DNA of 63,044 nucleotides from an uncultured Thermoplasmata archaeon (GTDB taxonomy: Archaea; Thermoplasmatota; Thermoplasmata; WALJ01). The stretch spans positions 1-63,044 of the forward strand of contig CAYYXK010000003.1 of the NCBI GenBank assembly GCA_964475625.1, read 5' to 3'. The notes under the pieces are model-generated. The model did no database searches. It was not told where the DNA came from and saw nothing but the letters and a program-made list of their open reading frames with translations. Shown piece by piece: positions 1 through 31,918 of the stretch; positions within the stretch are counted from its first letter, which is position 1; every line of letters starts with the position of its first letter. The position numbers and the translations under genes were made by a program.

Positions 1-14
1 TGAACGCTCCAACT

Positions 15-332
15 ATGCCAAATCCCAGAATCATCGTCCCATCCTCCATCTTCACCAACTCCTACTTCTACAAACATGAAATCGAAGACGGCAACGGAAA
101 CGAATCATGGCCAACCCTAACATTCTACGGCGATGATTCATCCGCGGACAACACGACAGCCCATGTCTCCGGCGTGATATACGGAAACATCACCGGAGAT
201 GATCTTGAAAGTCTTCTGACCGAACTCTCAAAGAACACAACCGGAACAGTAACATACGACTACACCACCGACGACCCTTATCAGATAAACCTGCCCTCCG
301 ATGTACTCAAGCTCGTTCCGTTCTCACAATAT
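15..332 (+). repeat. Conserved module, copy A (most divergent copy)
   Basis: The core ATCATCGTCCCATCCTCCATCTTCACCAACTCCTACTTCTACAAACATGAAAT (30-82) matches the other four copies with few mismatches. The rest is conserved mainly at protein level. Confidence 0.85.
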
Positions 333-1526
333 GCAAGCATTTCCAAGGCAGCAAATTCCAATCTGCGCGTTCTCATAGAGAACTCTCCCACTCAGACTCT
401 GAAAGGAACATCATCCAAAGGAGTGCACAACAGCGTCAACGGATGGGGAGACTTCCTTAAAGGAATAGTCAACGCAGCCGTAGAGGTCGGAACCGTCGCA
501 TGGGATTTCGCGGTAATGGCCGCACAGTCCGCGAAGAACATAGTCTGTTCCGCAATCACTGCGATAGCCACCACCGCCGGGGAATTCCTCACCCAGCTAG
601 GAAAAGCAATAATCGACTTCGGAAAGGAAGTAATCGGAACATTCAAGGACAAAATCAGCGAAGTAAAGGCAGCGGTTGAGAAGGTCGTGGATGTGATAGG
701 GGCGATTATTGAGTGGGTGAAAGAAGCGATAATAAATGCGGTTATGTCCGTTGTAAATCCGATCAAAGCCCGTCTGGACGCATTTTATGACACGCTAATA
801 CAGACAATATCCGATGCATTTACAGAGTATAGCAATACTGGGAGGCTCAGTGCTGAAACACAGCAGAATCTGAATTCTGTTCTCAACTTCAACTATCTAT
901 ATGTGGCATTCGGAGCTATGGTCATAGCCATAGATGCCATCGCAATAGCTGCGGGTTCAGTCACTTTGGGAGCAGGATATCTCTTGATAAGTGCAGCCGT
1001 ACCTTTGATCATAATGGCAGTTGTAGTGGCATTTAGTGGAAGCAGTGAATATGAAACTGCGGAAATCTCAGGACTGCAACCGAATCTGGATTTGAATTAC
1101 ATACTCAATTTCGTCAGGGATATGCTCACTAAAAGCAAAGGAAACGGCATAGGAAACCAGTTAATGGGAGCAGATCCAATGGATGTTTTATTCGGCTTTG
1201 TTTCTGTGCTTTTTGGTATGTGGTCGTGGATTACAGGGGCAATTGCTACAATAGATATAGAAGGGGCAGGTGCAGTAGCTTCCGTAGTTTTAGGTGCTAT
1301 TTCGTGGTGGGTTTTTGGTATAGCAGCATTGATTGCTACTGGAACTTCTGCTGGGGACATACTTGGTTTGATGGCGATAATAGGCGGTATATTATCTCTT
1401 ATTGGATCTGGACTGTCCTTAAGAGGGGTGGAAATTGAAGTTGGAACAAAAATAGCTCTTGGTCTGTCGTTAGCTTTCGGAGGTATTGGAATATATACTG
1501 GATATGAATCCCTATCTTTTACATGA
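15..1526 (+). CDS. Cassette-array protein A: conserved ~105-aa sequon-rich module, conserved helical segment, then a divergent Gly/Ala-rich multi-TM C-terminus. It may be the 3' part of a larger gene that starts left of the window.
   Basis: 503-aa ORF whose frame is open back to window position 3, so the 5' end may be cut by the window edge. N-terminus RIIVPSSIFTNSYFYKHEIEDG...LVPFSQY is paralogous to 8659-8973 and 10793-11107. The last ~210 aa hold 5-6 hydrophobic segments with GxxxG/GxxxA spacing. Confidence 0.75.
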   Translation: MPNPRIIVPSSIFTNSYFYKHEIEDGNGNESWPTLTFYGDDSSADNTTAHVSGVIYGNITGDDLESLLTELSKNTTGTVTYDYTTDDPYQINLPSDVLKLVPFSQYASISKAANSNLRVLIENSPTQTLKGTSSKGVHNSVNGWGDFLKGIVNAAVEVGTVAWDFAVMAAQSAKNIVCSAITAIATTAGEFLTQLGKAIIDFGKEVIGTFKDKISEVKAAVEKVVDVIGAIIEWVKEAIINAVMSVVNPIKARLDAFYDTLIQTISDAFTEYSNTGRLSAETQQNLNSVLNFNYLYVAFGAMVIAIDAIAIAAGSVTLGAGYLLISAAVPLIIMAVVVAFSGSSEYETAEISGLQPNLDLNYILNFVRDMLTKSKGNGIGNQLMGADPMDVLFGFVSVLFGMWSWITGAIATIDIEGAGAVASVVLGAISWWVFGIAALIATGTSAGDILGLMAIIGGILSLIGSGLSLRGVEIEVGTKIALGLSLAFGGIGIYTGYESLSFT

Positions 1527-1538
1527 GGGGGCGATGAA

Positions 1539-2171
1539 ATGAAATGTTACGAAGAAAACACAGAATATGTAATCAGAAATGTGGTTAGAAATGCTAAAAG
1601 CCTAGATTTAATATTTATATATATCGCAGTTCCATCGGTAATACTGTATCTTTTATTGCCTGACTTGTTTTTTCTTTCTGGGTTGTTTCTTTTTATGGCA
1701 GTATTCAATGTACTGCTGTTCATAGGATTCCGTTTATATTCTATTATATCAATTAAAAATTGGATGAATTACAGTTTTGTAACAAAAATATGCTTTTGGG
1801 ATGACTGTATAAAACTAATTTTTAAATCTTCAAATGAAATCAAAATATCTCTGAACAGTATTTATTATTTAAAACTACCTAAAATAAATATCGGTGAAAT
1901 ATGTTACTCTGTGAAGATTGGGAATAAACTCAGGCTTAAAAAACTCTATTTGTCGGCAGATCTATTTTATATTATTAAATCTCAATTAATTAAACATTAT
2001 AAAGAAAAAAACAAAACTCCATCTTTCATAATCGTCTCGCCGGAAGACAGGGCTGCAATGAGATGGGTTCTCACCTCTATCCAAACATATGTCACTCAGG
2101 GTAAAAAAGAAAAACTTAATAAAATCCTTGATGAGTTCTGGTCAAAGCACAAGTTAGAGGAGTTCGAGTAA
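1539..2171 (+). CDS. Small membrane protein with two N-terminal TM helices and a beta-rich cytoplasmic domain; candidate cognate partner or immunity protein of protein A
   Basis: 210-aa ORF starting 12 nt after the stop of protein A, with GAGGGGG upstream. Very AT-rich. Two long hydrophobic helices (VPSVILYLLLPDLFFLSGLFLFMAVFNVLLFIGF) are followed by alternating beta-like segments and a C-terminal helix. Confidence 0.6.
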   Translation: MKCYEENTEYVIRNVVRNAKSLDLIFIYIAVPSVILYLLLPDLFFLSGLFLFMAVFNVLLFIGFRLYSIISIKNWMNYSFVTKICFWDDCIKLIFKSSNEIKISLNSIYYLKLPKINIGEICYSVKIGNKLRLKKLYLSADLFYIIKSQLIKHYKEKNKTPSFIIVSPEDRAAMRWVLTSIQTYVTQGKKEKLNKILDEFWSKHKLEEFE

Positions 2172-2172
2172 T

Positions 2173-2640
2173 ATGTGCGGGAAACACGGAAGGATTATTG
2201 CAGATGTCAGCAATCGAAACCTCAAAACAACGAAATGGGTGCTCACAGTGGGAACGTTCGTTGGGGCAGTATTTGCTATTTTTGCAACCCGATTCTCGAT
2301 GAGCCTCAGTCCAGACATGATGTTCATTACTATTGTATTCTTAGCCAATGTCTTTCTTTTCGCCGCAGCTAGCATTTTTGTCTGGCTGTACTTCTCTTCA
2401 AAAGAGATAATTATATATGAAGACGGCATGAAGATTCCAAACAGCAGATTCTCATCCCGACATGTCAGATATGACAAAATAAAATCGATAGATCTGTATG
2501 CCAAAGGAGGAAATGTGATAATTCGCACAGAAACCAGAGATTTAGAGGTTACAAAGGGAATCATAGGAAAATGGGGGGTATTTGTCAAAATGTTAAAAGA
2601 CAAAGGACTTATAAATGAAAACGGAGATATGGAACCATGA
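2173..2640 (+). CDS. Small 2-TM + PH-like (bPH/YdbS-like topology) membrane protein; second candidate partner or immunity gene
   Basis: 155-aa ORF starting 1 nt after the previous stop. TM hairpin (WVLTVGTFVGAVFAIFA / ITIVFLANVFLFAAASIFVWLYF), then EIIIYEDGMKIPN...IKSIDLY...VIIRTE. This aligns by eye with the 12248-12754 product (AIVYENGIYSN...VEDIYV...VLLLKNGEE). Confidence 0.6.
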   Translation: MCGKHGRIIADVSNRNLKTTKWVLTVGTFVGAVFAIFATRFSMSLSPDMMFITIVFLANVFLFAAASIFVWLYFSSKEIIIYEDGMKIPNSRFSSRHVRYDKIKSIDLYAKGGNVIIRTETRDLEVTKGIIGKWGVFVKMLKDKGLINENGDMEP

Positions 2641-5600
2641 ACTTCCAACAAAAGTTTGATGACATATTCCTTTCCTTTGCCCAATTCCCCGATACAGAAT
2701 GTCTTGTGGACTCCTCTTCTTTCACAACCTTCTCATACTCCATCGAATCCGGTATGAACAACACAATCATCATCCCCTCCTCCATCTTCACGAACTCCTA
2801 CTTCTACCAGCACGAAATAGAAGACGGCGACGGTAAGAACAACCTGCACGACTTCGACTCGGACGGAGACCTTCTTTCCGACGGATGGAACGACACCAAC
2901 GCAAACGGGATATATGATGAGGGAGAAGGATACGGAGAACTGGGAGATCCTCTGGCAGGCAATGCCGGCGGCTACGGCACCGACCCGGCCGATACCGATA
3001 GTGACGGCGACGGCCTTACGGATGGCTTTGAAATAAACAAGTTTGGAGCATGGAATCAAACCATAGATCCAGACGGCGATGAATTCAATTTCTGGAACGC
3101 ACTAGGCCCCAATCTATGGGCAGAAGATGAAGACGGTGATTTTTTGATAAATATTATAGATTGGGACTCTGACAACGATGGCCTTCCGGATGGCTGGTTC
3201 GATGAAAATAACGACCAGATATGGGATGACAATGAATCATTTGGTGAGATTGGAGACATTAACAACAATAATAATGGCAGTTATGGAACTGATCCTTTGG
3301 ACAACGATACTGATAAGGATGGAATTTTAGATGGGATGGAAATTCACTTGAATATGGATCCTCTCGTACGGTATGACAACGATATGGACAACGACGGGAT
3401 ATGGGATTCAAATGATTTACAACCTGCTACTTCTTGGGAAAACATAACATTTAATGATTATTACATCCCAACCGGTGAGCTACTCATAAAAGAATGGCAG
3501 AATGTTTATTGGGGGCATACATACTACGATGATGCCACTCCGCCAGCATCTACTGTAAAGTCCCTTCTTAATGAATATTTGTCTTTTGAGTGGAAAGTTT
3601 CATATGATGTAACTCCCCCTAGTGAATGGATCATAAAATCAGATTTTAATGACTCTCTATGGGAGAAAAACATAACTCCTATAGGTAATGGAGATACACC
3701 TAAAACTCCAGCAACAAAAAGGGATTTTGAAGATCTTTATGCAAGAAAAACTTTTGTTTTAGATAAGCCTATTATGAGTGCTTATCTGCGTCTTTCTTCA
3801 GACGATGGTGCAGACATATGGGTAAATGGAGTAAAAGTACTTAATAGTATAACTGATCATCATCCAGCATCTTATTGGGATTATCAGATAAATATTACAA
3901 ATGAGCTTAAGATAGGTGAAAATTTTATAGCGATCCATATCAAAGACTATGGGGGGTCCTGTTATTTTGAACCTATTCTTGAAGTTCAGTATACATATGG
4001 ATTCTATGGAAACATATTGAATCCCTGGAAAGCGATTGATGCTGAACCGGAATATTCAGTAGGTTGGAAATTATACGATGGGACGGATTGGAAATTTTAT
4101 TATATTCCATTTATTAAAACATATCAAAATATTTTACCAATACACACCGATTATAAAGAGGCTAAATTTTTCTTAAGTATGGCACCTAACACCCAACAAA
4201 AAATAACAGTACAGTTTTCATTAGATCCGAGTTACGACACTAGTTACTATAACGACTCAACCTCATACAAATTACCCGGCTTCATATTCACTTTATATAA
4301 AAATGATTCGTGGCATACGAAATTATTTAGTAAAACTGTAGCAGGAAATGAGTTGAACAACCACTCTTTCCAGTGCGATTTCATAATACCTCCTGAAAAT
4401 ATAACAACAAATAGAACACTTCTTAGTATAATACCAGTTTGGATGGAGACAGATAAAAAAGCATCTCCTTTGGATCCTTCACATATGAAAATAGGTGCTT
4501 TTAGGATGGTAGTACTTGTAAATCAATACTTTGTTATATTCAAAAAAGGAGAAAATGAAACAGCAATTATGAATCAAATTCCAGAAGATGTTTATGATAG
4601 AAATTCTGGATATCTCTCAGGGACAAACATATATGTTTTTAACACTGCAGACAACAGTACTGTGATATATAACGAATTTAAGAATGTGGCTGAAACAGGC
4701 GGTGCAGATGCTGTCGTAGTGACTTCCGATTACAGTGATAAAATCCCCAATGCCATAAAAAGCGTCGATTGGAATTATATATGGAAGCTCGAGGATGCGA
4801 ACACTCTTGCAAACCTTCAATCAATATGGGAGCAATATACAGAAATTCTAATTAATTTTTATTATATAAAACAATATTCAGAACTGACCGGATTAAAATT
4901 AATAAAACCAAGAATCATTTTAGGAAGCGGTCTGGGAGCAACAACACTTCTTGAAAATGAAAATTTTGTTCTTTTGGAAAAAACACCTTCCGCTACTAGC
5001 TCTACAGGTTTCAACTATAATTTAAAATACTATGGTCAAAAACTTAATTCTGGCCAAGAGTTAACAAACTTCGTACAAACCTATTTCGGAATGGATAAGC
5101 AGTACATCGGGGAATCCAACGGATGGTATACATTCAAATCTGTAACTGGAGATGGCAGTGTAGTTAGAGTATGTGATACAAGCATATATACGCATTCAAG
5201 TACAAATTTGGATGAAATAAAGACGAATAAGTTGGTTGAACTAGATACGAAACACGAAACAATGATGAAATCTTTGAAAGTTATAAGTGGTACAGCCATA
5301 TTGGTCACATCAGCTATAGGCTTTATAGAAGCGTACAAAGAGGGAGATACTGCGGGCATGGTTGCATATTCGACCTCTGGAGGTGTTTTATTGACCGGAC
5401 TCTATTTTGAAGATGCATGGATTATTCGGGACGGGTCTTTTGTACTCAAACCAATATGGGCGATTGCCTCTATTGTCGCAGGAAGTATTTTTGCTTCATA
5501 TTATCTATATCAGGCATCTCTAACAGACGATCCTGCCTTGAAACATTACTATTATGGTAGAGCAACCTCTGCTTTTATAGATGGTGTTATGTTCTCAAAT

Positions 5601-5831
5601 CCCTTCACAGCACTTGGAGAAGCCGCCGTAATCCTAGGTACTGCTGTTGGTTGGGCATTAGGTCTATTAGATAGACCGATGACTTTTGGTGATGTAGTTG
5701 TCGCCATATGCGACTGGATAACGGGAACGCCCCAGCCAGACCCAGAAAAACAGTATTTTTACTATGTTGTTTGGAAAACTTTTACAGACAATATTCCAGA
5801 TGGTGCCATATATGTAGGAGATTATCCCTAA
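2637..5831 (+). CDS. Large cassette-array protein B: junction motif, TSP3-like Ca-binding repeats, lectin/jelly-roll-like domain, long unknown region, hydrophobic C-terminus
   Basis: 1064-aa ORF with ATGA overlap onto the previous gene and GGAGA 10 nt upstream. Motif GMNNTIIIPSSIFTNSYFYQHEIEDGDG lies at aa 39-66. It is followed by repeated DxDxDGxxDxxE stretches (DSDGDLLSDGW, DTDSDGDGLTDGFE, DSDNDGLPDGW, DNDTDKDGILDGME). AYLRLSSDDGADIWVNGVKV looks like a galactose-binding-like fold. About 4 hydrophobic helices lie in the last 200 aa. An alternative start is the motif Met at 2754. Confidence 0.7.
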   Translation: MNFQQKFDDIFLSFAQFPDTECLVDSSSFTTFSYSIESGMNNTIIIPSSIFTNSYFYQHEIEDGDGKNNLHDFDSDGDLLSDGWNDTNANGIYDEGEGYGELGDPLAGNAGGYGTDPADTDSDGDGLTDGFEINKFGAWNQTIDPDGDEFNFWNALGPNLWAEDEDGDFLINIIDWDSDNDGLPDGWFDENNDQIWDDNESFGEIGDINNNNNGSYGTDPLDNDTDKDGILDGMEIHLNMDPLVRYDNDMDNDGIWDSNDLQPATSWENITFNDYYIPTGELLIKEWQNVYWGHTYYDDATPPASTVKSLLNEYLSFEWKVSYDVTPPSEWIIKSDFNDSLWEKNITPIGNGDTPKTPATKRDFEDLYARKTFVLDKPIMSAYLRLSSDDGADIWVNGVKVLNSITDHHPASYWDYQINITNELKIGENFIAIHIKDYGGSCYFEPILEVQYTYGFYGNILNPWKAIDAEPEYSVGWKLYDGTDWKFYYIPFIKTYQNILPIHTDYKEAKFFLSMAPNTQQKITVQFSLDPSYDTSYYNDSTSYKLPGFIFTLYKNDSWHTKLFSKTVAGNELNNHSFQCDFIIPPENITTNRTLLSIIPVWMETDKKASPLDPSHMKIGAFRMVVLVNQYFVIFKKGENETAIMNQIPEDVYDRNSGYLSGTNIYVFNTADNSTVIYNEFKNVAETGGADAVVVTSDYSDKIPNAIKSVDWNYIWKLEDANTLANLQSIWEQYTEILINFYYIKQYSELTGLKLIKPRIILGSGLGATTLLENENFVLLEKTPSATSSTGFNYNLKYYGQKLNSGQELTNFVQTYFGMDKQYIGESNGWYTFKSVTGDGSVVRVCDTSIYTHSSTNLDEIKTNKLVELDTKHETMMKSLKVISGTAILVTSAIGFIEAYKEGDTAGMVAYSTSGGVLLTGLYFEDAWIIRDGSFVLKPIWAIASIVAGSIFASYYLYQASLTDDPALKHYYYGRATSAFIDGVMFSNPFTALGEAAVILGTAVGWALGLLDRPMTFGDVVVAICDWITGTPQPDPEKQYFYYVVWKTFTDNIPDGAIYVGDYP
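2738..2818 (+). repeat. Junction box, copy B; only the first ~25 codons of the module are present before the sequence switches to TSP3-like repeats
   Basis: CTCCATCGAATCCGG + ATGAACAACACAATCATCATCCCCTCCTCCATCTTCAC(G)AACTCCTACTTCTACCAGCA(C)GAAAT. The 15 nt before the ATG are identical to 10777-10791. Confidence 0.85.
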
Positions 5832-5840
5832 GGTGATAAA

Positions 5841-6395
5841 ATGATCGTAGGATATCTGAGCAGTGATGGAAAGATATACGACAGAAGTGGTAAATTCGTA
5901 AAGGAATTCAAACAGGATGAAGATGAAAAAGAAATAAAAAGATTCGTTTCCACCTCTCTTGTTGTGTCGTTCTGGGGTAGATCAGGAAGATCAAATCCGT
6001 TAGCAGATATGTATCCGGGTGAAGGCTTATTCATACAGACAAACAAAAGACTCATTTTCATCCGGGAATTAAAGCCTTCCAAGTCGTTTGCTGTGAATTC
6101 TTTCTTCGGTTCAGCCATGGTTGAAGCCATGAGAATGAGAGACCTGAAAAGATTGGGTCTCAGAGAGTATTTTGAGGTGTATTTCGACGAAATAATAGGT
6201 CATATCATCCATAAAGATGGTTACACTCTTTTAATATTGACGAGGGATAATGAAATTCGTAGCATCTTTGTTTCAAAGGAATTGAACTCTCCTGAAATTC
6301 TTAAGAAAGAGATATCTCGAAAAGAAGCAAAGAAAATGCAAAAAGAGATTAAAAAGAGAAAAAAGATATATTTTGGGAGGGTTATTTGGGAATGA
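5841..6395 (+). CDS. Soluble small protein, tandem paralog 1 of 3 (PH/GRAM-like guess); candidate immunity or partner of protein B
   Basis: 184 aa. Begins MIVGYLSSDGKIYDRSGKFVKEF behind the shared junction GGTGATAAAATG. Core QTNKRLIFIRELKP...AMRMRDLKRLGLREY is shared with the next two genes. No TM segment. Lys-rich tail. Confidence 0.65.
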   Translation: MIVGYLSSDGKIYDRSGKFVKEFKQDEDEKEIKRFVSTSLVVSFWGRSGRSNPLADMYPGEGLFIQTNKRLIFIRELKPSKSFAVNSFFGSAMVEAMRMRDLKRLGLREYFEVYFDEIIGHIIHKDGYTLLILTRDNEIRSIFVSKELNSPEILKKEISRKEAKKMQKEIKKRKKIYFGRVIWE

Positions 6396-6862
6396 TCATA
6401 GGCTATCTCAGCAGTGACAATAAGATATACACCAGAAACGGCAGGTTCATTAAGGAGTTCAGACTGGAGGAGGATGAAGAAATCATAGAGAAGGATAATG
6501 ATTTTTACTGTGGGGGCATAGCAAAGGCTACCAGAATAGGCGGAAATAGCGTTTTTGATAAGGGCAAATGCACAATCATAAGAACGAACGAGAGGCTGAT
6601 TCTATACAGGGAAATAAAACCAAGAGAGAAAATGTCTCTACATCCTTTCTTAGGTGAGGCATTAATCGAGGCTCTTCGGGCAAAGGAACTTAGCAAACTT
6701 GGGTTAAAGGAATACATCGAATTTCAGATGTCAGAGATAGAAAAGACCGAAAAAGGATGGCTTCTGAAAGGGAGAGAAATAGATTTCCGTTTCAATGGAG
6801 ATAAATATTATATGATATTCCCCAAATCAAAGAAAAATACTTTAGAGGACCTTTTCAGGTGA
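6392..6862 (+). CDS. Soluble small protein, tandem paralog 2 of 3
   Basis: MIIGYLSSDNKIYTRNGRFIKEF...RTNERLILYREIKP...ALRAKELSKLGLKEY. I prefer the ATG at 6392 (ATGA overlap with the paralog 1 stop) over the track TTG start at 6386, because it matches the paralog N-termini. Confidence 0.65.
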   Translation: MIIGYLSSDNKIYTRNGRFIKEFRLEEDEEIIEKDNDFYCGGIAKATRIGGNSVFDKGKCTIIRTNERLILYREIKPREKMSLHPFLGEALIEALRAKELSKLGLKEYIEFQMSEIEKTEKGWLLKGREIDFRFNGDKYYMIFPKSKKNTLEDLFR

Positions 6863-6866
6863 TAAA

Positions 6867-7334
6867 ATGATCGTAGGATACCTCGGTAGTGATGGAAAAA
6901 TATACGACAGAAACGGCAGGTTCATTAAGGAGCTCAGACTAGAGGAGGACGAAGAAATCATGGAAAAAGATGATAAATTTTACTGCGGAGGAATGTCAGA
7001 AAAGGTAGCTTTCGGAGATAGTGTATTTGAGAGAGGATATACCGAAGTCGTGAGGACATCTGCGCGGCTCATATTCATAAGAGAAATGAGGGCGATGGAA
7101 AAATTCTCAAACCATCCTTTCTTTGGAGCAGCCCTTTTAGCGGCCATGAGGGCCAAGGAGATCGCCAGTCTGGGATTCAGAGAGTACCTGGAGATACCAT
7201 TGGAAGAAATAAACGAGGCCAAAAAACGAATAACAGGTGCAAGGAATCTAATAATGAATGCCGATGGAATCGAGTATATCATGGTCTTCCCTAAATCAAA
7301 AAAAGGCACTTTGGAAGAGCTTTTTGGGAAGTGA
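6867..7334 (+). CDS. Soluble small protein, tandem paralog 3 of 3
   Basis: MIVGYLGSDGKIYDRNGRFIKEL...RTSARLIFIREMRA...AMRAKEIASLGFREY. Preceded by AGGTGATAAAATG, in which the TGA is the stop of paralog 2. Confidence 0.65.
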   Translation: MIVGYLGSDGKIYDRNGRFIKELRLEEDEEIMEKDDKFYCGGMSEKVAFGDSVFERGYTEVVRTSARLIFIREMRAMEKFSNHPFFGAALLAAMRAKEIASLGFREYLEIPLEEINEAKKRITGARNLIMNADGIEYIMVFPKSKKGTLEELFGK

Positions 7335-7372
7335 TAAAACGATCTTAGGATATATTAGTAGCAATCAAGATA
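7330..7372 (+). pseudogene. Dead 5' stump of a fourth tandem paralog (start codon ATG changed to ACG), read through in frame into the ORF of protein C
   Basis: GTGATAAAACGATCTTAGGATATATTAGTAGC at 7331-7362 matches the junction GTGATAAAATGATCGTAGGATA seen at 5833 and 6859. It encodes T-ILGYISSN against M-IVGYLSSD. Similarity is lost after about 12 codons. Confidence 0.6.
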
Positions 7373-7395
7373 GCTATAACATAACTAACGTCTCC

Positions 7396-10185
7396 ATGGT
7401 TTTGATACATGTCGGAGAGCTTTCAATTGGAACATCTCCGTTGAACAACGACACGGACGGAGACAACATAACCGACGGAGACGGACTCACTGACTCTCAG
7501 GAAACATACACGAGGACATTCACAATAGACAGCAGGTACACACTCTCATCGGACAGAACGATATCTCTGAACGCGAGGGTCAGCAATTCCGCAGTGGAAT
7601 CCGTATATGTGCGCTTCGGACTCTCCGGCGTCAGCAATACAAAGGTCACTCTCACCCTCGAGAGCCCGGACGGAATCTCCGAGGAGATATACAACAATAC
7701 GCCCTCCTCGGGCTACCTTTTCAACTCCACGGACATAACCTCAATGACATCCGATTATTCCGGAACATGGAAGCTTACCGTAAGCTTAAACTCTCATTCA
7801 CCAAGCAAGATGCTCGAGGACTTCACCCTCACATTCACAATGAAAACCTCACCGGTAAATGATGATTGCGACGGCGACGGCCTCTACGACGGAGAGGAAG
7901 CCACCCCTGGAGAGGACGGATACATAACCGATCCCAACCTTGCAGACACAGACGGTGACGGTCTGTGGGACGGCTATTACACGGGCAATTCCGCAATCTC
8001 TCCGCCTCCCGGAGAAGAATCATATGGAACAAACCCCTTGAACCCGGATACGGATTCCGACGGAGTATCGGACGGCGACGACTTGGCGAAAACTTCAAAC
8101 ACCATGATGAGGATAACCATAAAGAACATCCAGATAAAGAATTCTCCGCCGGATGTCAATGAAGCAAAGGTGCAGGTCATCATCCATGTGAAATCCGGAC
8201 CCGTTAATGCGACCTACATAACGACACATATCGTAATTAAAGACCTCACCAACGGTTCGGGCAGCAAATCACTTGACATAACATATTTCCTCGACATGTC
8301 CGACATCATGGGTGCGACTCATCATTTCGATGTTTACCTTTACAGATACTTAGATCAGGATTCCTATCTGATGAACATAGAAGGTCCTTCCACGGATTAT
8401 TCATACGACTGGCAGACCAACGCAAACGGCGGTATGGAGTATATCAATCTCAATCCCAACGGAGATAACGCATCTCTTCTAATCCATGTTGAGATGGATG
8501 AGCAGCCGAGAAACGATGTTTTCGCATTTTATACCCCGGATATGGCCGTAAATGCAAAGATAGGATCGGAACCTCTGAGATATCTCGGCACATCCTCTTA
8601 CTATGTTTTCATATTGAACACAACCAAGGATTCTTCCGACTCCACCATCCAAGCAGGTATGAACAACACAATCATCGTCCCCTCTTCCATCTTCACCAAC
8701 TCCTACTTCTACCAGCATGAAATTCTCGAAGGCGACGGAGCCACCAACTGGCCGAACCTAACCTTCTACGGCGACAACGAATCATCGGACAGCACAACCG
8801 CTCACATATCGGGAATCATAACAGGCAATCTGACAGGAGACGAAGTCCTCGAACTTCTAACCGAACTCTCAAAGAACACAACCGGAATAGTAACATACAA
8901 TTACTCTCTCGAAGACCCGACACAGCTCAATCTTCCCCCGGATGCACTCAAACTGGTTCCGTTCTCCGGATATGTGAAAAAGCTAGACGGCAAAACGGTC
9001 ATTCTGAAAAATGCCCGGACATCCGATATTCAGGAGCCCCCGACCATCTCCGCAAACGGAGGATATGACACGGTAAACGGATTGATGGACTCGATCAAAC
9101 AGAAATTGCAGGGTGCCGTCAATCTCGGCATCTCCGTCGGAACAGCGGTCTGGGACAAAGCCGTAGACCTTGGAACCGAACTCGCTCACATAGTCTGCTC
9201 GGCAATAACCGCAGTCGCAGTAAAATTCACGGAATTCGTTGTCCAGCTGGGAAAAGCAATAATCGACTTCGGTAAAAAGGTCATAGGAGCCTTCGAAAAA
9301 GCCATGGCCGAAGTAAAGGCAGCGGTTGATAAGGTCGTGGATGTCATCGGCGCACTCTTAAACTCACTCGTCGAAATGGCAAAAAGCATGTTCAACAGCA
9401 TGATAGAGAGCATCCGAAATGCAATACACGACTGGTATATCGGAATAGTCGATGTGGTCGAAAGAATAGTCAATGCAAGCAGTGATGAAGAAGCGATGCA
9501 GCTGGGAGTTGAGTTGTTCAGAGCCACATTCGGAAGCATATTACCTTATGCGATGGCTCTGGTGATAGGCATTGAAGCCGCAATAATGATAATCCAGGGA
9601 CTCAGCGGCGGGCTTACCACCCTTATCTTGCCTCTTATAGCCATGGTCATTATAACCGCGTTCTCCAGCAATGCCGAGCTTCCCGGCAATGTGAACATAG
9701 ATTCGGACCTCACTTTCGAAGGTCTGGTCAATTGGGTTGCGGACAATATGGAAGGAGGAGGAAGCAGCGACAACAGCGAAGAATGGAACCGAGCTTTGGT
9801 ATCCGTTGTTATAGGCGGTTTTGCCACCTTGCTGGCTCTAACAGGATATACCATATCTTGGTATAACACAAAATTAGACGACATGTATAATCGTAGAAAC
9901 ACAATGGTAAAAGAAGAAATGGGTGAGAAGGCAAGCCAAGCAGCTATATTATTAGGATTTCTCAGCATGATACTGTCCGTATCCACAGTGAATGATGTGC
10001 TGATATCCGAAGATGCAAGAGCAGAGTTGAATCTATGGAGCTCCGTACTTGCTGGAATGGGAATCATTCTATCCATTGTCGGTATGTTATTAAATCCAAG
10101 CGCACTAGGAGCCGGTGGAATCATATTGGATTTCTTCGCTCTTATCATGTCTGGAGCCGGTTTAGCACTCTCGGGGGGTCTTTAG
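7396..10185 (+). CDS. Large cassette-array protein C: TSP3-like repeats, P-domain-like jelly roll, unknown beta domain, S/T-rich linker, conserved ~105-aa module, helical segment, divergent multi-TM C-terminus
   Basis: The ORF is open from 7258 (975 aa). The first in-frame ATG past the upstream gene is 7396 and the true start is uncertain. Motifs: NNDTDGDNITDGDGLTD, DDCDGDGLYDGEE, DTDGDGLWDG, DTDSDGVSDGDD. VYVRFGLSGVSNTKVTLTLESPDGISEEIY resembles a proprotein-convertase P-domain. The module starts at Met468 (nt 8659). The C-terminal 280 aa hold about 6 hydrophobic segments. No signal peptide is visible. Confidence 0.7.
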   Translation: MVLIHVGELSIGTSPLNNDTDGDNITDGDGLTDSQETYTRTFTIDSRYTLSSDRTISLNARVSNSAVESVYVRFGLSGVSNTKVTLTLESPDGISEEIYNNTPSSGYLFNSTDITSMTSDYSGTWKLTVSLNSHSPSKMLEDFTLTFTMKTSPVNDDCDGDGLYDGEEATPGEDGYITDPNLADTDGDGLWDGYYTGNSAISPPPGEESYGTNPLNPDTDSDGVSDGDDLAKTSNTMMRITIKNIQIKNSPPDVNEAKVQVIIHVKSGPVNATYITTHIVIKDLTNGSGSKSLDITYFLDMSDIMGATHHFDVYLYRYLDQDSYLMNIEGPSTDYSYDWQTNANGGMEYINLNPNGDNASLLIHVEMDEQPRNDVFAFYTPDMAVNAKIGSEPLRYLGTSSYYVFILNTTKDSSDSTIQAGMNNTIIVPSSIFTNSYFYQHEILEGDGATNWPNLTFYGDNESSDSTTAHISGIITGNLTGDEVLELLTELSKNTTGIVTYNYSLEDPTQLNLPPDALKLVPFSGYVKKLDGKTVILKNARTSDIQEPPTISANGGYDTVNGLMDSIKQKLQGAVNLGISVGTAVWDKAVDLGTELAHIVCSAITAVAVKFTEFVVQLGKAIIDFGKKVIGAFEKAMAEVKAAVDKVVDVIGALLNSLVEMAKSMFNSMIESIRNAIHDWYIGIVDVVERIVNASSDEEAMQLGVELFRATFGSILPYAMALVIGIEAAIMIIQGLSGGLTTLILPLIAMVIITAFSSNAELPGNVNIDSDLTFEGLVNWVADNMEGGGSSDNSEEWNRALVSVVIGGFATLLALTGYTISWYNTKLDDMYNRRNTMVKEEMGEKASQAAILLGFLSMILSVSTVNDVLISEDARAELNLWSSVLAGMGIILSIVGMLLNPSALGAGGIILDFFALIMSGAGLALSGGL
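8636..8973 (+). repeat. Conserved module, copy C, internal to the full-length-like gene
   Basis: CCGACTCCACCATCCAAGCAGGT + ATGAACAACACAATCATCGTCCCC... through PFSGY, 315 nt from the Met. Confidence 0.85.
9111..9344 (+). repeat. Gene-conversion tract, copy in protein C (helical segment GAVNLGISVGTAVWDK...KAAVDKVVDV)
   Basis: 9111-9329 is identical base for base to 11221-11439 (219 bp). One mismatch follows, then 14 more identical bases. The flanking linkers on the 5' side are unrelated. Confidence 0.9.
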
Positions 10186-10187
10186 TA

Positions 10188-10715
10188 ATGGTTAAAATAA
10201 ATTATATATTGAAAAGCTCATACGTTGGCACGATGAGGTCCATGTTATTATTATTTATTTTTATGGATTTTCTGGGTCTGTATTTCATTTTATCCATTAT
10301 CGGGCGAGTGAGTATTCTTTATCCGATACTCTTATTTATTTATATCATATTATCAAATATTTTTTATTTCTTTTATTTATTAGATATATTTGAGCCATAT
10401 ATCATCGAAATAGAAGGCAAAAGTCTAAAAATAATAACAAAAAGAAAAAGAGTATTGAGAGAATTTGATATCTGTAAAGTCAAGGTTCCGTTAATTAGTC
10501 TAAAGATAGATTTTCATGATAAGTTTATAAAAAAGAACAAAGGTGTTTATATGTACTTCTCAGATGACCTAAGACATGGCATTTCTATAGGAAAAGGGTT
10601 CATACGATATGGCAGAATCCCCATGCGCGAAGCCGTAGAGATTGAGAACTGGATAAAAGAATGGAAGAAAAAGCTCTGTGAAACGAACACAAACAAAGGA
10701 GGTGACGAGAGATAG
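10188..10715 (+). CDS. Small 2-TM + beta-rich membrane protein; candidate cognate partner or immunity protein of protein C
   Basis: ATG at 10188 lies 2 nt after the protein C stop (TAG 10183-10185), with GGGGGG upstream. The 10035 track start would overlap protein C and is rejected. TM hairpin MLLLFIFMDFLGLYFILSII / ILYPILLFIYIILSNIFYFFYLL, then YIIEIEGKSLKIITK...FDICKVKV. Very AT-rich. Confidence 0.6.
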   Translation: MVKINYILKSSYVGTMRSMLLLFIFMDFLGLYFILSIIGRVSILYPILLFIYIILSNIFYFFYLLDIFEPYIIEIEGKSLKIITKRKRVLREFDICKVKVPLISLKIDFHDKFIKKNKGVYMYFSDDLRHGISIGKGFIRYGRIPMREAVEIENWIKEWKKKLCETNTNKGGDER

Positions 10716-10776
10716 AGCCGAGATACAGCTTTTCATCGGACGAAGCAATATGTCACGCCTCCTCCGACCCCACCCA

Positions 10777-11107
10777 CTCCATCGAATCCGGAATGAACAA
10801 CACAATCATCATCCCCTCCTCCATCTTCACCAACTCCTACTTCTACCAGCATGAAATCCTCGAAGGCGGCGGAGCCACCAACTGGCCGAACCTCACATTC
10901 TACGGAGACAACGAATCATCGGACAACACAACCGCCCACATATCCGGAATCATAAGCGGAAATCTGACAGGAGACGAAGTCCTCGAACTTCTAACCGAAC
11001 TATCGAAGAACACAACCGGAATAGTAACATACAATTACTCTCTCGAAGACCCGACACGGCTCAATCTGCCCCCGGACGCACTCAAACTCGTTCCTTTCTC
11101 AGGCTAC
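10777..11107 (+). repeat. Conserved module, copy D
   Basis: Same 315-nt module. The 5' flank is shared with copy B and the body is shared with copies C and E. Confidence 0.85.
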
Positions 11108-12238
11108 GGATACCTCATAGACACATATGTAAAACTCAGCAATTCTCCCACCGGGCAGCTTCCGCAGTCAAGGTCAATAGGAGGAAATACTCCCGACAGC
11201 TGGCTCGGCGATCTGGCCAAGGGTGCCGTCAATCTCGGCATCTCCGTCGGAACAGCGGTCTGGGACAAAGCCGTAGACCTTGGAACCGAACTCGCTCACA
11301 TAGTCTGCTCGGCAATAACCGCAGTCGCAGTAAAATTCACGGAATTCGTTGTCCAGCTGGGAAAAGCAATAATCGACTTCGGTAAAAAGGTCATAGGAGC
11401 CTTCGAAAAAGCCATGGCCGAAGTAAAGGCAGCGGTTGAGAAGGTCGTGGATGTGATAGCCTCGTTTATAGACTGGGTTACAGAAGTAATAAAACAAGCA
11501 TTTTCAGACATATTGAAGCCTCTCCTTGACGCAATAGAATCCATAAAACAAGATATGATTGATGCTGGAAAGTACATTCTGGAAAATCTTGATAGATTAA
11601 GTCCGGGAGAAATACAATCTCGTCTTACTAGGGCCCTGCATCCGGAAATTATTATACCTTTATTCATCGGAATAACGGTCACTTCCGTTCTTCTAACAAT
11701 AGCCGCCAAGGTTGGAACAATGGGTACAGACTTTATTTTTGGAATATTGTTGGGTATCATAGTGGGTGCCGCTTCATATATGGTGGAACAGGCAGTATTT
11801 TCAATGTCATCTGCCGAAGACTGGCTTATTGATAAAATACAGGATGCCGAACCTTCGGAAGAGATATCAGAATATGTGGCTCTTATAAGTCTACTTTTTT
11901 CATCATTACATAAACTAATAGATAGCTTGTTTTTCGACAACCGTTTAAAAACTACAGGGGGGTTCGTTCTATCACTAATTTCGGTAATTTTGGTTTTAAG
12001 CGGTTTAATATATGAAGACACAGTCTCACAAGCAATAATTTCTATTTTTTCTATGGTTATAGGCGTTGAAAGTGCATATCAAAGTCTTAAAGGCATAGCA
12101 GGTCCAAAAATAGGAACAATACCCGGATTGCTGGGATTTGCAGGTTTTTGTATAGGGACTCTGTCATCTTCGGCTGCTTTTTTCACTTTTATAGCATCAT
12201 TCGGTCCAAATACGAAATCAATAAAGAGAGGTTCGTGA
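10793..12238 (+). CDS. Cassette-array protein D (orphan-like copy): conserved module, helical segment, then a divergent multi-TM C-terminus, with no N-terminal repeat region
   Basis: 481-aa ORF that starts exactly at the module Met. About 30 nt of the S/T/P-linker coding sequence is still recognisable upstream without a start codon; the frame is open only from 10706. The module is ~90% identical in DNA to 8659-8973. Tract 11221-11439 is 100% identical to 9111-9329. The C-terminus diverges after VVDVI. Confidence 0.7.
   Translation: MNNTIIIPSSIFTNSYFYQHEILEGGGATNWPNLTFYGDNESSDNTTAHISGIISGNLTGDEVLELLTELSKNTTGIVTYNYSLEDPTRLNLPPDALKLVPFSGYGYLIDTYVKLSNSPTGQLPQSRSIGGNTPDSWLGDLAKGAVNLGISVGTAVWDKAVDLGTELAHIVCSAITAVAVKFTEFVVQLGKAIIDFGKKVIGAFEKAMAEVKAAVEKVVDVIASFIDWVTEVIKQAFSDILKPLLDAIESIKQDMIDAGKYILENLDRLSPGEIQSRLTRALHPEIIIPLFIGITVTSVLLTIAAKVGTMGTDFIFGILLGIIVGAASYMVEQAVFSMSSAEDWLIDKIQDAEPSEEISEYVALISLLFSSLHKLIDSLFFDNRLKTTGGFVLSLISVILVLSGLIYEDTVSQAIISIFSMVIGVESAYQSLKGIAGPKIGTIPGLLGFAGFCIGTLSSSAAFFTFIASFGPNTKSIKRGS
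11221..11454 (+). repeat. Gene-conversion tract, copy in protein D
   Basis: See 9111-9344. A 40-bp sub-box GAAGTAAAGGCAGCGGTTGAGAAGGTCGTGGATGTGATAG is also identical in copy A (660-699). Confidence 0.9.
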
Positions 12239-12247
12239 GGTAAGTAT

Positions 12248-12754
12248 ATGAATAATAATACAAAAATATATCTTAGAAATATAATATATAAAGAAAGATT
12301 TCTTTTTAAGAAAGTAGTGGATTGTTTAGAGCTTCCACTCATTGCTTTTTTAACTCTTTTTGTTAATGCTTACTCACATACTCTTTCAAATCCAATAGAG
12401 AAAAATTTATTTTTATATTCTTCATATATACTGCCTATTATATGGTTAACTTTTTTCTTATGGGGTCTTTCTATAAAAGCAATTGTTTACGAAAACGGCA
12501 TTTACTCCAATTACTCCCTGAAATACCGAGGTACATGGCATTTCAAGGATGTCGAAGATATTTATGTCGCACCATTCCCTTACGGAGGAAAAAAGATGAG
12601 GCAGGTCGTTCTTCTCCTGAAAAACGGGGAGGAAAAGACCGTCATAGCATATGATAAGGATGCCGTCATAGATCGGTTCTATGAAGAGGCAAAAAAGGCA
12701 TTTGAGGCATACAAATCAAAAAATAAAGGTGAAAGTGATGATATACATATATGA
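12248..12754 (+). CDS. Small 2-TM + PH-like membrane protein; candidate cognate partner or immunity protein of protein D
   Basis: 168-aa ORF starting 9 nt after the protein D stop. TM hairpin LPLIAFLTLFVNAY / LFLYSSYILPIIWLTFFLWGLSI, then AIVYENGIYSNYSLKYRGTWHFKDVEDIYV...VVLLLKNGEEKTVIAY and a C-terminal helix. Homologous by eye to the 2173-2640 product. Confidence 0.6.
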   Translation: MNNNTKIYLRNIIYKERFLFKKVVDCLELPLIAFLTLFVNAYSHTLSNPIEKNLFLYSSYILPIIWLTFFLWGLSIKAIVYENGIYSNYSLKYRGTWHFKDVEDIYVAPFPYGGKKMRQVVLLLKNGEEKTVIAYDKDAVIDRFYEEAKKAFEAYKSKNKGESDDIHI

Positions 12755-12854
12755 AGAGTACATAAGCAACGATTTTCCGGCTATATCGGGATATTTACAA
12801 CAGAACACAGACCTACCCCCCTTCACCTCCCCCGACTCCACCATCCAAGCAGGT

Positions 12855-12980
12855 ATGAACAACACAATCATCATCCCCTCCTCCATCTTCACCAACTCCT
12901 ACTTCTACCAGCATGAAATCCTCGAAGGCGGCGGAGCCACCAACTGGCCGAACCTCACATTCTACGGAGACAACGCATGA
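12855..12980 (+). pseudogene. Truncated fifth copy (E) of the conserved module: first 40 codons only
   Basis: 12855-12975 is 121/121 identical to 10793-10913. The 26 nt upstream (12832-12857) match copy C (8636-8661), not copy D. Homology stops at 12975 and a TGA follows at 12978-12980, 6 nt before the stop codon (12987-12989) of the convergent neighbour. Confidence 0.8.
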
Positions 12981-12986
12981 AACCTT

Positions 12987-13424
12987 TCACTCGAACAGTA
13001 TCTCTATCCTCTTAACCCTTGAAACCGGAACCCTTTCCCTTCCCTTTTTGACGAGGCTTATCAGCTCCATCTTTTTCATTACCATCAGGTCGTAGTAGAT
13101 GTTCTTGTAGTCGCGGGAGAGCGCTGAAGCGAGCTCCTTGATGGATGACACCCTGTTCTTCTGAAGATAATCCAGTATCTCAACCCTCGATTCCCCCAGA
13201 ACCGAGAAAATGGAATAATCGTGGAACACCGTTTCCTCCTCCATCTCGGCCCCTTTGAGGAGCGCTCTCAGCATCTCATAGTCGTCCACGACCGAAGGAG
13301 ATGCGCACTTACCGATGGAGGCTTTCTGACCGAGGGAATCCACGGAGCCGTAGCGAGTTATAAGTTCATCGGCCTTCTCCTTCACATAGTCGCCGTCCAC
13401 CCTGTTCTTTATCAGAACCTTCAT
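12987..13424 (-). CDS. Winged-helix DNA-binding protein, HVO_A0114/TumA-like putative antitoxin or regulator
   Basis: 145 aa. The C-terminal part, RVEILDYLQKNRVSSIKELASALSRDYKNIYYDLMVMKKMELISLVKKGRERVP, is a typical ArsR-type wHTH. ATGA overlap with the upstream gene. Confidence 0.5.
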   Translation of the reverse strand: MKVLIKNRVDGDYVKEKADELITRYGSVDSLGQKASIGKCASPSVVDDYEMLRALLKGAEMEEETVFHDYSIFSVLGESRVEILDYLQKNRVSSIKELASALSRDYKNIYYDLMVMKKMELISLVKKGRERVPVSRVKRIEILFE

Positions 13425-13777
13425 ACGAGGTCCTCCAGCGACATGGCGGCAAGGTTCCTCCTGAATATGCGGACCAGCCTCTCTATCTCATCCAGTTCCT
13501 TCTCAGGCGTGTTCATCTGTTCAAGGAGAGCACCGTTCTCATCGTACCTGTCAACATGGGGCTGCTGCTGAAAGTTATCCCACCGGACATAGGGCATCCA
13601 TCCCCTTCTGGTCTCCACCATGTATGTGTAGCTGTAGTACTTCCTCCGGTTCTCGTCGTATACCTCCAGAGAATCGACCACCTCGTTCCTGTGGACGTAT
13701 ATCCTCTTTTTCAGCACCTTCATTGCCACGGCATGGGATATACACTTTGATATAACAGCTTTCCTACATCCTTTCAA
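13421..13777 (-). CDS. DUF6516/TumE-like putative toxin
   Basis: About 100-118 aa. KYYSYTYM...YVRWDNFQQQPHVDRYDENG resembles the YSYHW...RYDNAPHH signature of that family, from memory only. The start may be the Met at 13723 rather than 13777. Confidence 0.4.
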   Translation of the reverse strand: MKGCRKAVISKCISHAVAMKVLKKRIYVHRNEVVDSLEVYDENRRKYYSYTYMVETRRGWMPYVRWDNFQQQPHVDRYDENGALLEQMNTPEKELDEIERLVRIFRRNLAAMSLEDLV

Positions 13778-19629: not shown

Positions 19630-20216
19630 CCTTCATAGTCATTGACGGGATAGATGGCTGCGGAAAGAGCAGCCATGCGAGATCTCTCGTGAGATATCTC
19701 AGGTCCATCGGAAGAGATGCCATATTCCTGAAGGAGCCAACTACCGAGAGCTCTGCCGGAAAAATGCTCATGGAGGCCCTGAAAAGCGGGAACCGTCCTT
19801 CTCCCGAGGAAGAACTGCGCCTGTTCATAGAGGACAGGAGATGGGATGTGGAGAACCGCATACTGCCTGCCCTGAAAGATGGAAAGGACATAGTGATGGA
19901 CCGCTATTACTACAGCACCATGGCGTATCAGGGCGCAAGGGGAATGGACATCGGGAAGATACGGAAGATGAACGACTTCGCACCGGTGCCCGACATAGTG
20001 ATAATACTTGACATAGAGCCTGAAACAGCGTGGGAGCGCATAAGCAGGCGGGGAAACGACAATTACTTCGAAAAACTCGATTATCTCGGAAAGGTCAGGG
20101 AGATATTCCTTTCCATGTCGGATATACCGGAAGTCAGGATAATCGATTCATCCGGATCGTTTGAGAGTACAAAGAAGAAGATAATCGCCACTCTGAAGAA
20201 AGAATTCGGTATCTAG
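19626..20216 (+). CDS. tmk: Thymidylate kinase, with no canonical start codon upstream of the P-loop
   Basis: The P-loop FIVIDGIDGCGKSS is encoded at 19632-19673, upstream of the first ATG/GTG/TTG at 19689. The frame is open only from 19602 and contains no ATG/GTG/TTG before the P-loop. CTG at 19626 overlaps the cgi121 stop. Confidence 0.75.
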   Translation: MTFIVIDGIDGCGKSSHARSLVRYLRSIGRDAIFLKEPTTESSAGKMLMEALKSGNRPSPEEELRLFIEDRRWDVENRILPALKDGKDIVMDRYYYSTMAYQGARGMDIGKIRKMNDFAPVPDIVIILDIEPETAWERISRRGNDNYFEKLDYLGKVREIFLSMSDIPEVRIIDSSGSFESTKKKIIATLKKEFGI

Positions 20217-21166: not shown

Positions 21167-21225
21167 GGATAAGATATGTGATAGCCGGTATTAATAATTT
21201 ATCATCATCTCTCAGGCTATGTTTC

Positions 21226-31624: not shown

Positions 31625-31666
31625 AAACTTGACCTATCCATCAACTATAAAGAGCTTTCTGAAATT

Positions 31667-31918
31667 CTATCTGTAAACCTTCCCTCTGTCCCCAACCCTC
31701 AGAACCAGCACGCAATCACCTATTATCTTGTATATCACCCTGTAATCTCCGATTCTGTAGCTGTAAAGCCCTTTGAAATTGCCGGAGAGGGCCTTTCCGG
31801 CCTTCGGGTTCCCGGAAAGCACGGATCCTATCTCGTCCATTATGCGCCGTGCCGTTTCCCTGTCGATGTTCTTCAGGTCATGATAGACCGAGTTCTTGTA
31901 CTTCACCTCACAGCCCAA
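31667..31918 (-). CDS. RelE/ParE-family toxin
   Basis: 83 aa. SVYHDLKNIDRETARRIMDEI...GNFKGLYSYRIGDYRVIYKI...VLVLRVGDRGKVY is a classic RelE/ParE pattern. Overlaps the upstream RHH gene by 11 nt. Confidence 0.8.
   Translation of the reverse strand: MGCEVKYKNSVYHDLKNIDRETARRIMDEIGSVLSGNPKAGKALSGNFKGLYSYRIGDYRVIYKIIGDCVLVLRVGDRGKVYR

Follow-up and report, generated by a model that had tools for sequence, protein, structure and literature searches.

We analysed a stretch of 63,044 nucleotides (nt) from an uncultured Thermoplasmata archaeon (contig CAYYXK010000003.1 of GenBank assembly GCA_964475625.1; hereafter the window) and found that positions 1 to 12986 form a tightly packed array of co-directional genes on the + strand, as read from the window's list of open reading frames (ORFs). 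In this array, a conserved protein scaffold is joined to exchangeable membrane-domain tails that have a small membrane-protein gene, the partner, directly downstream. Comparisons within the window and with other genomes show that recombination at the end of a helical segment of the scaffold swaps the tail and its partner as a pair. The array itself is a hypervariable island at a conserved site of the chromosome of this Thermoplasmata-type archaeon, and the window contains its right-hand part. In our judgment, it is very probable that this locus is some kind of recombining effector/partner cassette system; that the cassettes encode toxins and their immunity proteins is a reading towards which these sequences make us lean, with considerably less assurance.

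Five copies of one protein module, here called A to E, mark out the array. A tblastn search with the window's own proteins placed the module starts at 15/21, 2754, 8659, 10793, and 12855 and found no further site in the 63 kb, with E-values for the copies ranging from 1e-8 for B, of which only ~30 amino acids (aa) match, to 1e-118 for C against D. The repeat families D1 to D3 from a DNA repeat finder cover these module sites at 69 to 93% identity, and the two methods agree on the five positions given in a preliminary description of this DNA. The scaffold runs from a ~45-aa leader through a ~105-aa alpha/beta module rich in N-glycosylation sequons (6 to 7 within ~130 aa) and a linker to a ~100-aa amphipathic helical segment that ends in ...AVxKVVDVI. 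Protein alignment and hydropathy analysis both support the layout described earlier for A, C, and D, which have in common the ~105-aa module, a linker belonging to one of three alternative types, the ~100-aa helical segment, and an unalignable hydrophobic C-terminus. Each of these three tails contains 4 to 7 hydrophobic segments, while the N-termini contain none. The tight linkage of an AT-rich gene for a two-transmembrane (2-TM) protein to A, C, and D was likewise recovered, with gaps of 12, 2, and 9 nt between the stop codons of A, C, and D and the partner starts (1539, 10188, and 12248, respectively) and a fractional G+C content (GC) of 0.30 to 0.32 in the partners. The GC of the array is below that of the remaining window. 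Taken together, these features are real and lie far outside what chance would produce. The features of the array and of its right flank are as follows, with Shine-Dalgarno abbreviated SD.

1 to 1526, + strand: copy A, a 508-aa ORF whose ATG has its first base just left of the window; module 21 to 335, linker ~336 to 464, helical segment 465 to 764 with KVVDVI at 681 to 698, then a ~250-aa multi-TM tail
1539 to 2171, + strand: Ap, the first small gene after A, 210 aa, GC 0.30, SD-like GAGGGGG upstream
2173 to 2640, + strand: Ap2, the next small gene, 155 aa, with a 2-TM hairpin and a domain rich in strands
2637 to 5831, + strand: copy B, a chimeric 1064-aa gene; leader and first 30 to 43 module aa (from 2754), then TSP3-like Ca-binding repeats, a ~600-aa unique region, and 3 hydrophobic C-terminal segments, without the helical segment
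5841 to 6395, 6392 to 6862, and 6867 to 7334, + strand: S1 to S3, tandem soluble paralogues of 155 to 184 aa that follow B
7258 to 10185, + strand: copy C (P0009), 975 aa (929 aa if translation starts at the ATG at 7396); TSP3-like repeats at the N-terminus, a weak match to the P-domain, module 8659 to 8976, linker 8977 to 9114, helical segment 9115 to 9414 with KVVDVI at 9331 to 9348, tail to 10185
10188 to 10715, + strand: Cp, partner of C, 175 aa, 2-TM hairpin, GC 0.305
10793 to 12238, + strand: copy D, a 481-aa orphan whose first ATG is the module's own Met; module 10793 to 11110, linker 11111 to 11224, helical segment 11225 to 11524 with KVVDVI at 11441 to 11458, tail to 12238
12248 to 12754, + strand: Dp, partner of D, 168 aa, 2-TM hairpin, GC 0.32
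12820 to 12980, + strand: copy E, a stump with a leader remnant and the first 41 module codons (12855 to 12980), then a stop
12987 to 13777, - strand: right flank, outside the array; HVO_A0114-type helix-turn-helix (HTH) gene (12987 to 13424) and weakly TumE-like gene (13421 to 13777), then the gene for arginyl-tRNA synthetase (ArgRS)

The border between the scaffold and the tail is sharp. Between C and D, DNA identity is 90 to 97% in the module, ~45% in the linker, and 100% over 9128 to 9307; it then drops across ~60 nt (9308 to 9367) and is random through the tail and the partner gene. KVVDVI is the last motif common to the copies. Composition changes at the same border, from a GC of 0.49 to 0.50 in the scaffold, close to the 0.49 to 0.51 of the genome, to 0.38 to 0.46 in the tails and 0.30 to 0.32 in the partners (0.40 in Ap2). 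The array continues to the left of the window, where a second contig (L002) and one JGI contig add at least four paralogues (P0002, P0008, P0003, and P0004); wherever the sequence is readable, each of these is followed by a small gene of its own. The JGI contig, 18.3 kb long, carries P0002, P0003, P0004, P0006, and P0008, and the gene order of this left part is taken from two ENA fragments, L002 and L003. In alignments with these paralogues, C shares one linker with P0004 and D shares another with P0002 and P0003, and in both groups the tails differ. Linker types and tail types therefore assort independently, which requires at least two recombination points.

From position 12986 rightwards, the window has 77% DNA identity to a contig of a Thermoplasmata metagenome-assembled genome (L006), and the genes from the HTH, TumE-like, and ArgRS genes onwards are common to both. 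At the corresponding site, flanked by a Mut7-C-like gene, the island of L006 is only ~3 kb long; it opens with a Cp-like gene standing alone, continues with an orphan that is truncated at its 5' end and has an A-type tail, and closes with genes resembling Ap and Ap2. It is this conserved flank, combined with the different island content in L006, that leads us to place the array in a hypervariable island. A contig from a related sample (L008) has yet another tail and partner between the same conserved flanks, and at least 8 tail types are present in this population. We also observed that the flanking pair on the - strand (12987 to 13777), which L006 has too, combines an HTH gene of the HVO_A0114 type (E = 2e-15) with a 118-aa gene weakly matching TumE (E = 9e-4, below the cut-off) and may be a toxin-antitoxin pair.

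Two tail-plus-partner cassettes were found behind different front ends in other genomes. In L006, the 5'-truncated orphan ends in a counterpart of the A tail (53% identity) and is followed by a 156-aa counterpart of Ap2 (63% identity); a homology search with Ap2 gave a single homologue. In the position of Ap, L006 has a 218-aa gene with weak BLAST similarity to Ap at the C-terminus only, and both proteins end in KLEEFE. The tail of another paralogue (P0007), with the start of its partner, recurs on contig L015 at 78% DNA identity over 787 nt, and the homology begins at the junction; there, the helical segment in front of the cassette is very different, and a 2168-aa PKD protein with its own 2-TM partner is encoded upstream. 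The lone Cp-like gene of L006 (170 aa) is 34% identical to Cp and has no C-type tail adjoining it. These comparisons show that partners can persist without tails and that truncated copies and stumps pile up downstream. With the sharp breakpoint, the GC shift across it, and the cassettes behind other front ends, we recovered the polymorphic grammar proposed in the preliminary description (a conserved 5' part, a swap junction, a variable 3' part, a partner, orphans, and a stump). The pattern that it had named as counterevidence, homologues in single copy with invariant C-termini and no linked small gene, was not what we saw in the relatives examined.

The partners are alike in architecture. An N-terminal 2-TM hairpin followed by 70 to 150 soluble residues is present in 18/18 partners examined; hydropathy places the hairpin at about residues 20 to 80 in the partners of the window, and in Ap, we read a ~55-aa N-terminal hydrophobic stretch (residues 19 to 73) as this hairpin. 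Partner-partner BLAST matches occur only between orthologues of one cassette, so that partners are conserved with the same tail across genomes and unrelated between different tails. The NCBIfam family NF041635 (STM3941_fam), which comprises uncharacterised bacterial inner-membrane proteins, matches 5 of the 18 partners at E ≤ 1, with 27.3 bits for Ap2 (E = 2.8e-6) and 17 bits for Dp (E = 0.004), and the curated cut-off of 40 bits is not reached. On these matches, it is possible that the partners are distantly related to the STM3941 family without being members of it; with BLAST linking only same-cassette orthologues, they lend little weight to the earlier assignment of the partners to one divergent family. 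We could not confirm the pleckstrin homology (PH)-like fold that had been proposed for the partners. No Pfam bPH hit was obtained in the partners at E ≤ 0.1 (bPH_6 reached E = 0.17 in 1 of the 18), and a search of PDB sequences with a partner profile returned nothing. The AlphaFold2 (AF2) model of Ap2 has 2 TM helices, 5 to 6 strands, and a C-terminal helix at a mean predicted local distance difference test score (pLDDT) of 56.6, and Foldseek gave nothing significant for it, the best PH hit having E = 1.9. Only the order of the secondary-structure elements is compatible with a PH fold.

A profile built from the leader, module, linker, and helical segment retrieved 71 representatives from 1.84 billion proteins, and the family amounts to ~70 sequence clusters at 50% identity. 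Many of these relatives are giants of 1.2 to 3.1 thousand aa in which an N-terminal signal-like segment and PKD/TSP3/FN3/LamG repeats precede the module, helical segment, and tail. On L011/L012, a giant gene is followed by a 221-aa 2-TM gene, an orphan that starts at the module Met, and a 169-aa 2-TM gene; on the short contig L013, tail-bearing genes alternate with 2-TM genes; and on L014 and L015, a giant is followed by its 2-TM partner, with an added orphan on L015. The order giant then partner is thus seen in three other archaeal lineages, two of which have an orphan too. Orphan cassettes with partial upstream homology comprise D, E, and the L006/L005 orphans in this clade and those downstream of the giants on L011 and L015. 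In the loci examined, a small TM gene or ORF lies close downstream of every tail-bearing gene except P0068, although on L010 and L016 these are short TM ORFs without a soluble domain. The neighbouring genes of the relatives are archaeal (L19e, L21e, Rpb4, and UPF0179), and the family looks archaeal, judged from the neighbourhoods examined. No relatives were found in IMG/VR viral contigs. We considered and rejected an origin from a virus or mobile element on this result, on the lack of an integrase or transposase among the ORFs of the array, as had been noted before, and on the lack of tRNA or Rfam RNA genes in the window.

Most tails of the family are ~235 to 270 aa long and have 4 to 7 hydrophobic segments rich in Gly, Ala, and Ser. 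The A tail is 27% identical to the tail of the 3124-aa relative P0034 (E = 8e-12), and an iterative profile search started from it reached 29 of 62 tails but none of the reversed or locally shuffled decoys, which rules out composition alone as the source of the likeness. The C tail was reached from the A tail at E = 2e-38, again with no decoy hits, whereas the D tail and a few small groups were not reached in this search of 62 tails. Homology links many of the TM tails, so that the tails make up one fast-evolving membrane-domain family plus a few others. The preliminary description of the C-termini as divergent and unrecognisable is accurate in that no TM tail among the array proteins scanned has a Pfam or NCBIfam match and goes too far in that many of them are related. 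One tail of the array is of a different kind: that of P0004, on the neighbouring contig, is a soluble, C39-like cysteine peptidase domain that matches Peptidase_C39_2 over the whole model (E = 1.6e-7, 32.4 bits against a cut-off of 24); a word-index homology search gave no match for this tail, and it missed P0004 itself too. The reported absence of a known toxin fold therefore applies inside the window and does not extend to the array as a whole.

The tails and their partners bear directly on the main rival to the toxin/immunity reading, a non-lethal pair for self or kin recognition of the IdsD/IdsE or TraA type. In such a pair, the TM tail of a surface or transferred protein would have to bind the matching 2-TM partner in the same or a neighbouring membrane, and whether the two match would decide a social outcome, for example adhesion, membrane exchange, fusion, or a boundary, with no killing. 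In Proteus mirabilis IdsD/IdsE, the specificity determinants of both proteins lie in or next to TM segments and the interaction is expected inside the membrane; here, too, the variability is in membrane-embedded segments of both proteins. Most tails belong to one homologous family of constant length, which resembles alleles of a single domain rather than a set of different weapons, and giant, adhesin-like PKD/TSP3/FN3/LamG ectodomains would suit cell-cell contact. However, in P0004 a peptidase occupies the place of the TM tail at this junction, the search from the A tail did not reach several tail classes, and a lone partner together with many orphan pairs is the pattern of stock-piled immunity; identity loci normally consist of one pair. 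Ids is in fact a single pair delivered by a type VI secretion system (T6SS), in contrast to the many cassettes, the orphans, the peptidase tail, and the giant Sec-type ectodomains found here. On balance, we regard a recognition pair as rather unlikely.

No copy in the window is demonstrably the expressed, exported full-length gene, because none has a signal peptide. Copy A had been taken as the possible 3' end of a much larger gene, with leftward extension of the contig as the check. This extension is provided by L003, which is 100% identical to window positions 1 to 2979: the gene before A stops after ...YINKVTAG and is followed by AGGTGA and an ATG, and this stop and separate start rule out A as the end of a giant gene. 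Copy C had been considered full length. It aligns with P0053 and others from about residue 300 onwards and is probably 5'-truncated, since it has no signal peptide and its relatives are longer by several hundred residues and have an N-terminal hydrophobic segment. Copy D does start at the module, as described, and ~25 leader-like codons lie upstream of it without a start codon or SD motif. Copy E is the stump it was said to be and is the final element of the array, directly against the conserved flank; a further array of the family (L001) also closes with a stump, of 102 aa, ahead of its CDC48 gene. On L001, we also noted a 128-aa mini-gene (660 to 1046) that lacks both module and helical segment, the leader being fused directly to 2 to 3 hydrophobic segments; a 2-TM partner of its own (163 aa) comes next, and the mini-gene looks like a deletion derivative of a cassette. 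Of the three genes that follow the chimeric copy B, S1 and S3 have a GGTGA motif upstream. S1 to S3 are 40 to 54% identical to each other, lack TM segments, and had no family match in library scans; they look like a tandem immunity-type array for the different effector end of B.

Translation signals enter into another explanation, the main alternative named in the preliminary description, in which silent 3' cassettes are copied into one expression locus and the surface glycoprotein on display changes by phase or antigenic variation. Partial copies in tandem and in one direction, with 5' blocks of high similarity and a stump, would fit such a system, as would the fact that D and E are without translation signals of their own. 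Against it, each cassette has a separately translated partner, preceded by an SD-like motif, which would be superfluous for antigenic variation. In addition, the variable part is hydrophobic and membrane-embedded rather than displayed, and no invertase or recombinase was recognised among the array ORFs or the scanned flanking genes. We consider this explanation very improbable.

If the cassettes are toxin/immunity pairs, the full-length form would be a stalk exposed on the surface, from which the tail is presented or delivered to the membrane of a neighbouring cell. The TM tail would perturb the target membrane as a pore or ionophore, in the manner of CdiA-CT(EC93), pore-forming colicins, or glycine-zipper effectors, and the cognate 2-TM partner would neutralise the tail inside the membrane by direct tail-partner binding. 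The window copies, which lack signal peptides, would then be a reservoir for recombination, and their partners a stock of immunity. Among the criteria for polymorphic toxins (Zhang et al. 2012), we found a conserved N-terminal and a variable C-terminal region with a sharp junction between them, a co-varying downstream gene, and orphan cassettes. With regard to recognisable toxin domains of unrelated folds, one tail is a Peptidase_C39_2 domain, and the others are TM tails without a match, at least 29 of 62 TM tails being one family. As for a delivery route, the giants have signal-like segments and PKD/TSP3/FN3 repeats, which the copies in the window, L001, and L002 do not have.

Several observations weigh against the toxin/immunity reading. 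A polytopic tail would first have to leave the membrane of its producer, which is a difficulty for this reading. The homology and near-constant length of the tails fit a conserved structural membrane domain equally well. C39-like peptidases can be processing domains instead of toxins, and the low-confidence structure models matched no known pore-former, toxin, or immunity fold. Signal peptides are absent from all copies on L001, on L002, and in the window, and a full-length exported gene was not seen for this organism. Finally, the giant P0068 (L009) has no small gene downstream.

Some of these points would also be expected of an ordinary envelope family. In that case, the module, helical segment, and polytopic domain would anchor large surface adhesins or S-layer-associated proteins in the membrane or form their stalk, the 2-TM protein would help in assembly or stabilisation, and the array would be a product of duplication, decay, and diversifying selection, by viruses for example, with no inter-cellular function. 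Relatives with this C-terminal unit are giant surface proteins with Sec signals, of which one has no small TM gene and two have short TM ORFs without a soluble domain; many tails are homologous and of constant length; and the module is rich in N-glycosylation sequons. Selection by viruses or hosts, however, should vary the exposed ectodomain, whereas here the scaffold next to the ectodomain is 90 to 100% identical between copies and the membrane part is replaced wholesale at a sharp, GC-shifted breakpoint. Moreover, the cassettes move with their partner between scaffolds and genomes, a partner is retained without any client, one tail is a soluble peptidase that cannot act as an anchor, and the copies without signal peptides could not reach the surface. 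The envelope-anchor and antigenic-variation readings both fit poorly with the sharp contrast between scaffold and tail, with partners that move along with a tail or stand alone, and with a tail that is a peptidase; we think an ordinary envelope family quite unlikely.

A more specific form of the toxin/immunity reading is competition of an archaea-specific kind that depends on contact or membrane exchange. A polytopic weapon on a giant glycosylated stalk would pass into the membrane of a neighbour, for example through transient fusion or vesicles in Thermoplasmata that are wall-less or have only an S-layer; the cognate 2-TM protein would neutralise it in the membrane, and the tandem arrays of intact copies without signal peptides would be a recombination library. 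We put this forward as a tentative and rather unlikely possibility. If true, it would be a membrane-exchange logic of delivery for which there is no bacterial counterpart that uses a secretion machine.

Scans of all array proteins against Pfam, NCBIfam, and PADLOC gave nothing above cut-off except TSP3/P-domain fragments, and the helical segment had weak matches to DUF7217 (E ≥ 1.6e-4). No secretion-system genes were recognised in the scanned parts of the window. Searches of PDB sequences with P0004, its tail, the scaffold profile, and the partner profile found nothing. The AF2 model of D has a pLDDT of 59.6, and Foldseek searches of the PDB with the models of D and Ap2 gave no hit under E = 0.9. 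In the D model, the module (residues 1 to 117; window 10793 to 11143) forms an alpha/beta sandwich with KH/ferredoxin-like Foldseek neighbours that are non-significant (E of ~2 to 7). The juxtamembrane place and the sequon richness of the module in giant surface proteins recall SEA-type domains, which we mention as a lead only.

Among known systems, those closest include the CdiA-CT/CdiI loci of contact-dependent inhibition, especially the class of E. coli EC93 with its membrane-ionophore toxin. In both, a giant surface protein has a conserved body, a short pre-toxin junction motif (VENN in CdiA, ...KVVDVI here), and an exchangeable C-terminal region (CT), the immunity gene or its counterpart lies directly downstream, and orphan pairs retain upstream homology. 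With EC93-type CdiA, the site of action of the CT is the membrane, and immunity is conferred by a small TM protein. In contrast to CdiA loci, the array has no TpsB/CdiB transporter or FHA repeats, its archaeal host has no outer membrane, and the module and helical segment have no detectable similarity to CdiA. The tails of the array also differ in having 4 to 7 TM segments, a constant length, and mutual homology in many cases, and the orphans are mostly intact ORFs of ~500 aa. On our preferred reading, the array would work like the CdiA-CT(EC93)/CdiI class while belonging to no bacterial family. Pfam and NCBIfam scans of A, B, C, D, and P0002 to P0008 showed no FHA/VENN, YD repeats, DUF1020, or LXG.

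In Rhs/YD-repeat and MafB islands, alternative CT cassettes form arrays with their immunity genes, and there are cassettes of low GC and immunity genes that stand alone (Zhang et al. 2012, PMC3482391; for Maf, PMC4287609). The array resembles these islands in its conserved N-terminus, variable C-terminus, sharp junction, and downstream immunity-type gene, but it lacks the YD shell, the DPxGL autoproteolysis motif, the MafB N-terminal domain, and a T6SS or type VII secretion system context, with no Pfam or NCBIfam match at cut-off. In the archaeal VARTIG module of Thermococcales, a large surface protein has a C-terminal part made hypervariable by recombination and variable small genes downstream, an organisation explicitly compared with that of polymorphic toxin systems (Makarova et al. 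2021, PMC8416519). VARTIG varies an Ig domain, and the present array varies a polytopic membrane domain on another scaffold, with a 2-TM protein as the partner. Archaeal systems of the polymorphic toxin and self/non-self kinds are reported as predictions with hardly any experimental tests, and those predicted mostly reuse bacterial parts (Rhs, PVC-type delivery). Makarova and colleagues are said to have predicted archaeal polymorphic toxin systems in mBio in 2019. Our literature searches found no description of the present family, some of whose members may stand among the ~1,600 unnamed proteins of that 2019 catalogue. The grammar is known, while the module, the helical pre-tail segment, the main TM tail family, and the partner are without an above-cut-off match in Pfam or NCBIfam or a match among PDB sequences.

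Elsewhere in the window, we noted a ~1-kb block of low GC (20185 to 21225, GC 0.39) that is absent from the otherwise collinear L006, where positions 19496/19515 join the equivalents of window positions 20184 and 21226. This block contains a 298-aa hydrophobic ORF on the - strand (20213 to 21109) with no Pfam match. A second low-GC spot (0.405 over 31001 to 32000) includes part of a 211-aa ORF on the - strand (30989 to 31624), also with no Pfam match. The gene at 24444 to 28943 (- strand) encodes a 1499-aa signal-peptide protein with clostripain-family (Peptidase_C11), Big_7 Ig, and reelin-subrepeat-like domains, and two more Ig-rich surface proteins are encoded at 35704 to 37311 and 37414 to 39546; all three are unrelated to the array.

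The family described here combines the full polymorphic grammar, a clear recombination junction, and an exchangeable membrane domain paired with a membrane partner. It offers clonable tail/partner pairs, namely A/Ap/Ap2, C/Cp, D/Dp, and at least five more nearby, that are suited to probing antagonism or kin recognition between archaeal cells and the action of a polytopic domain on another cell. It also offers an explanation for the C-terminal unit of many giant PKD-rich surface proteins of archaea that so far lack annotation.

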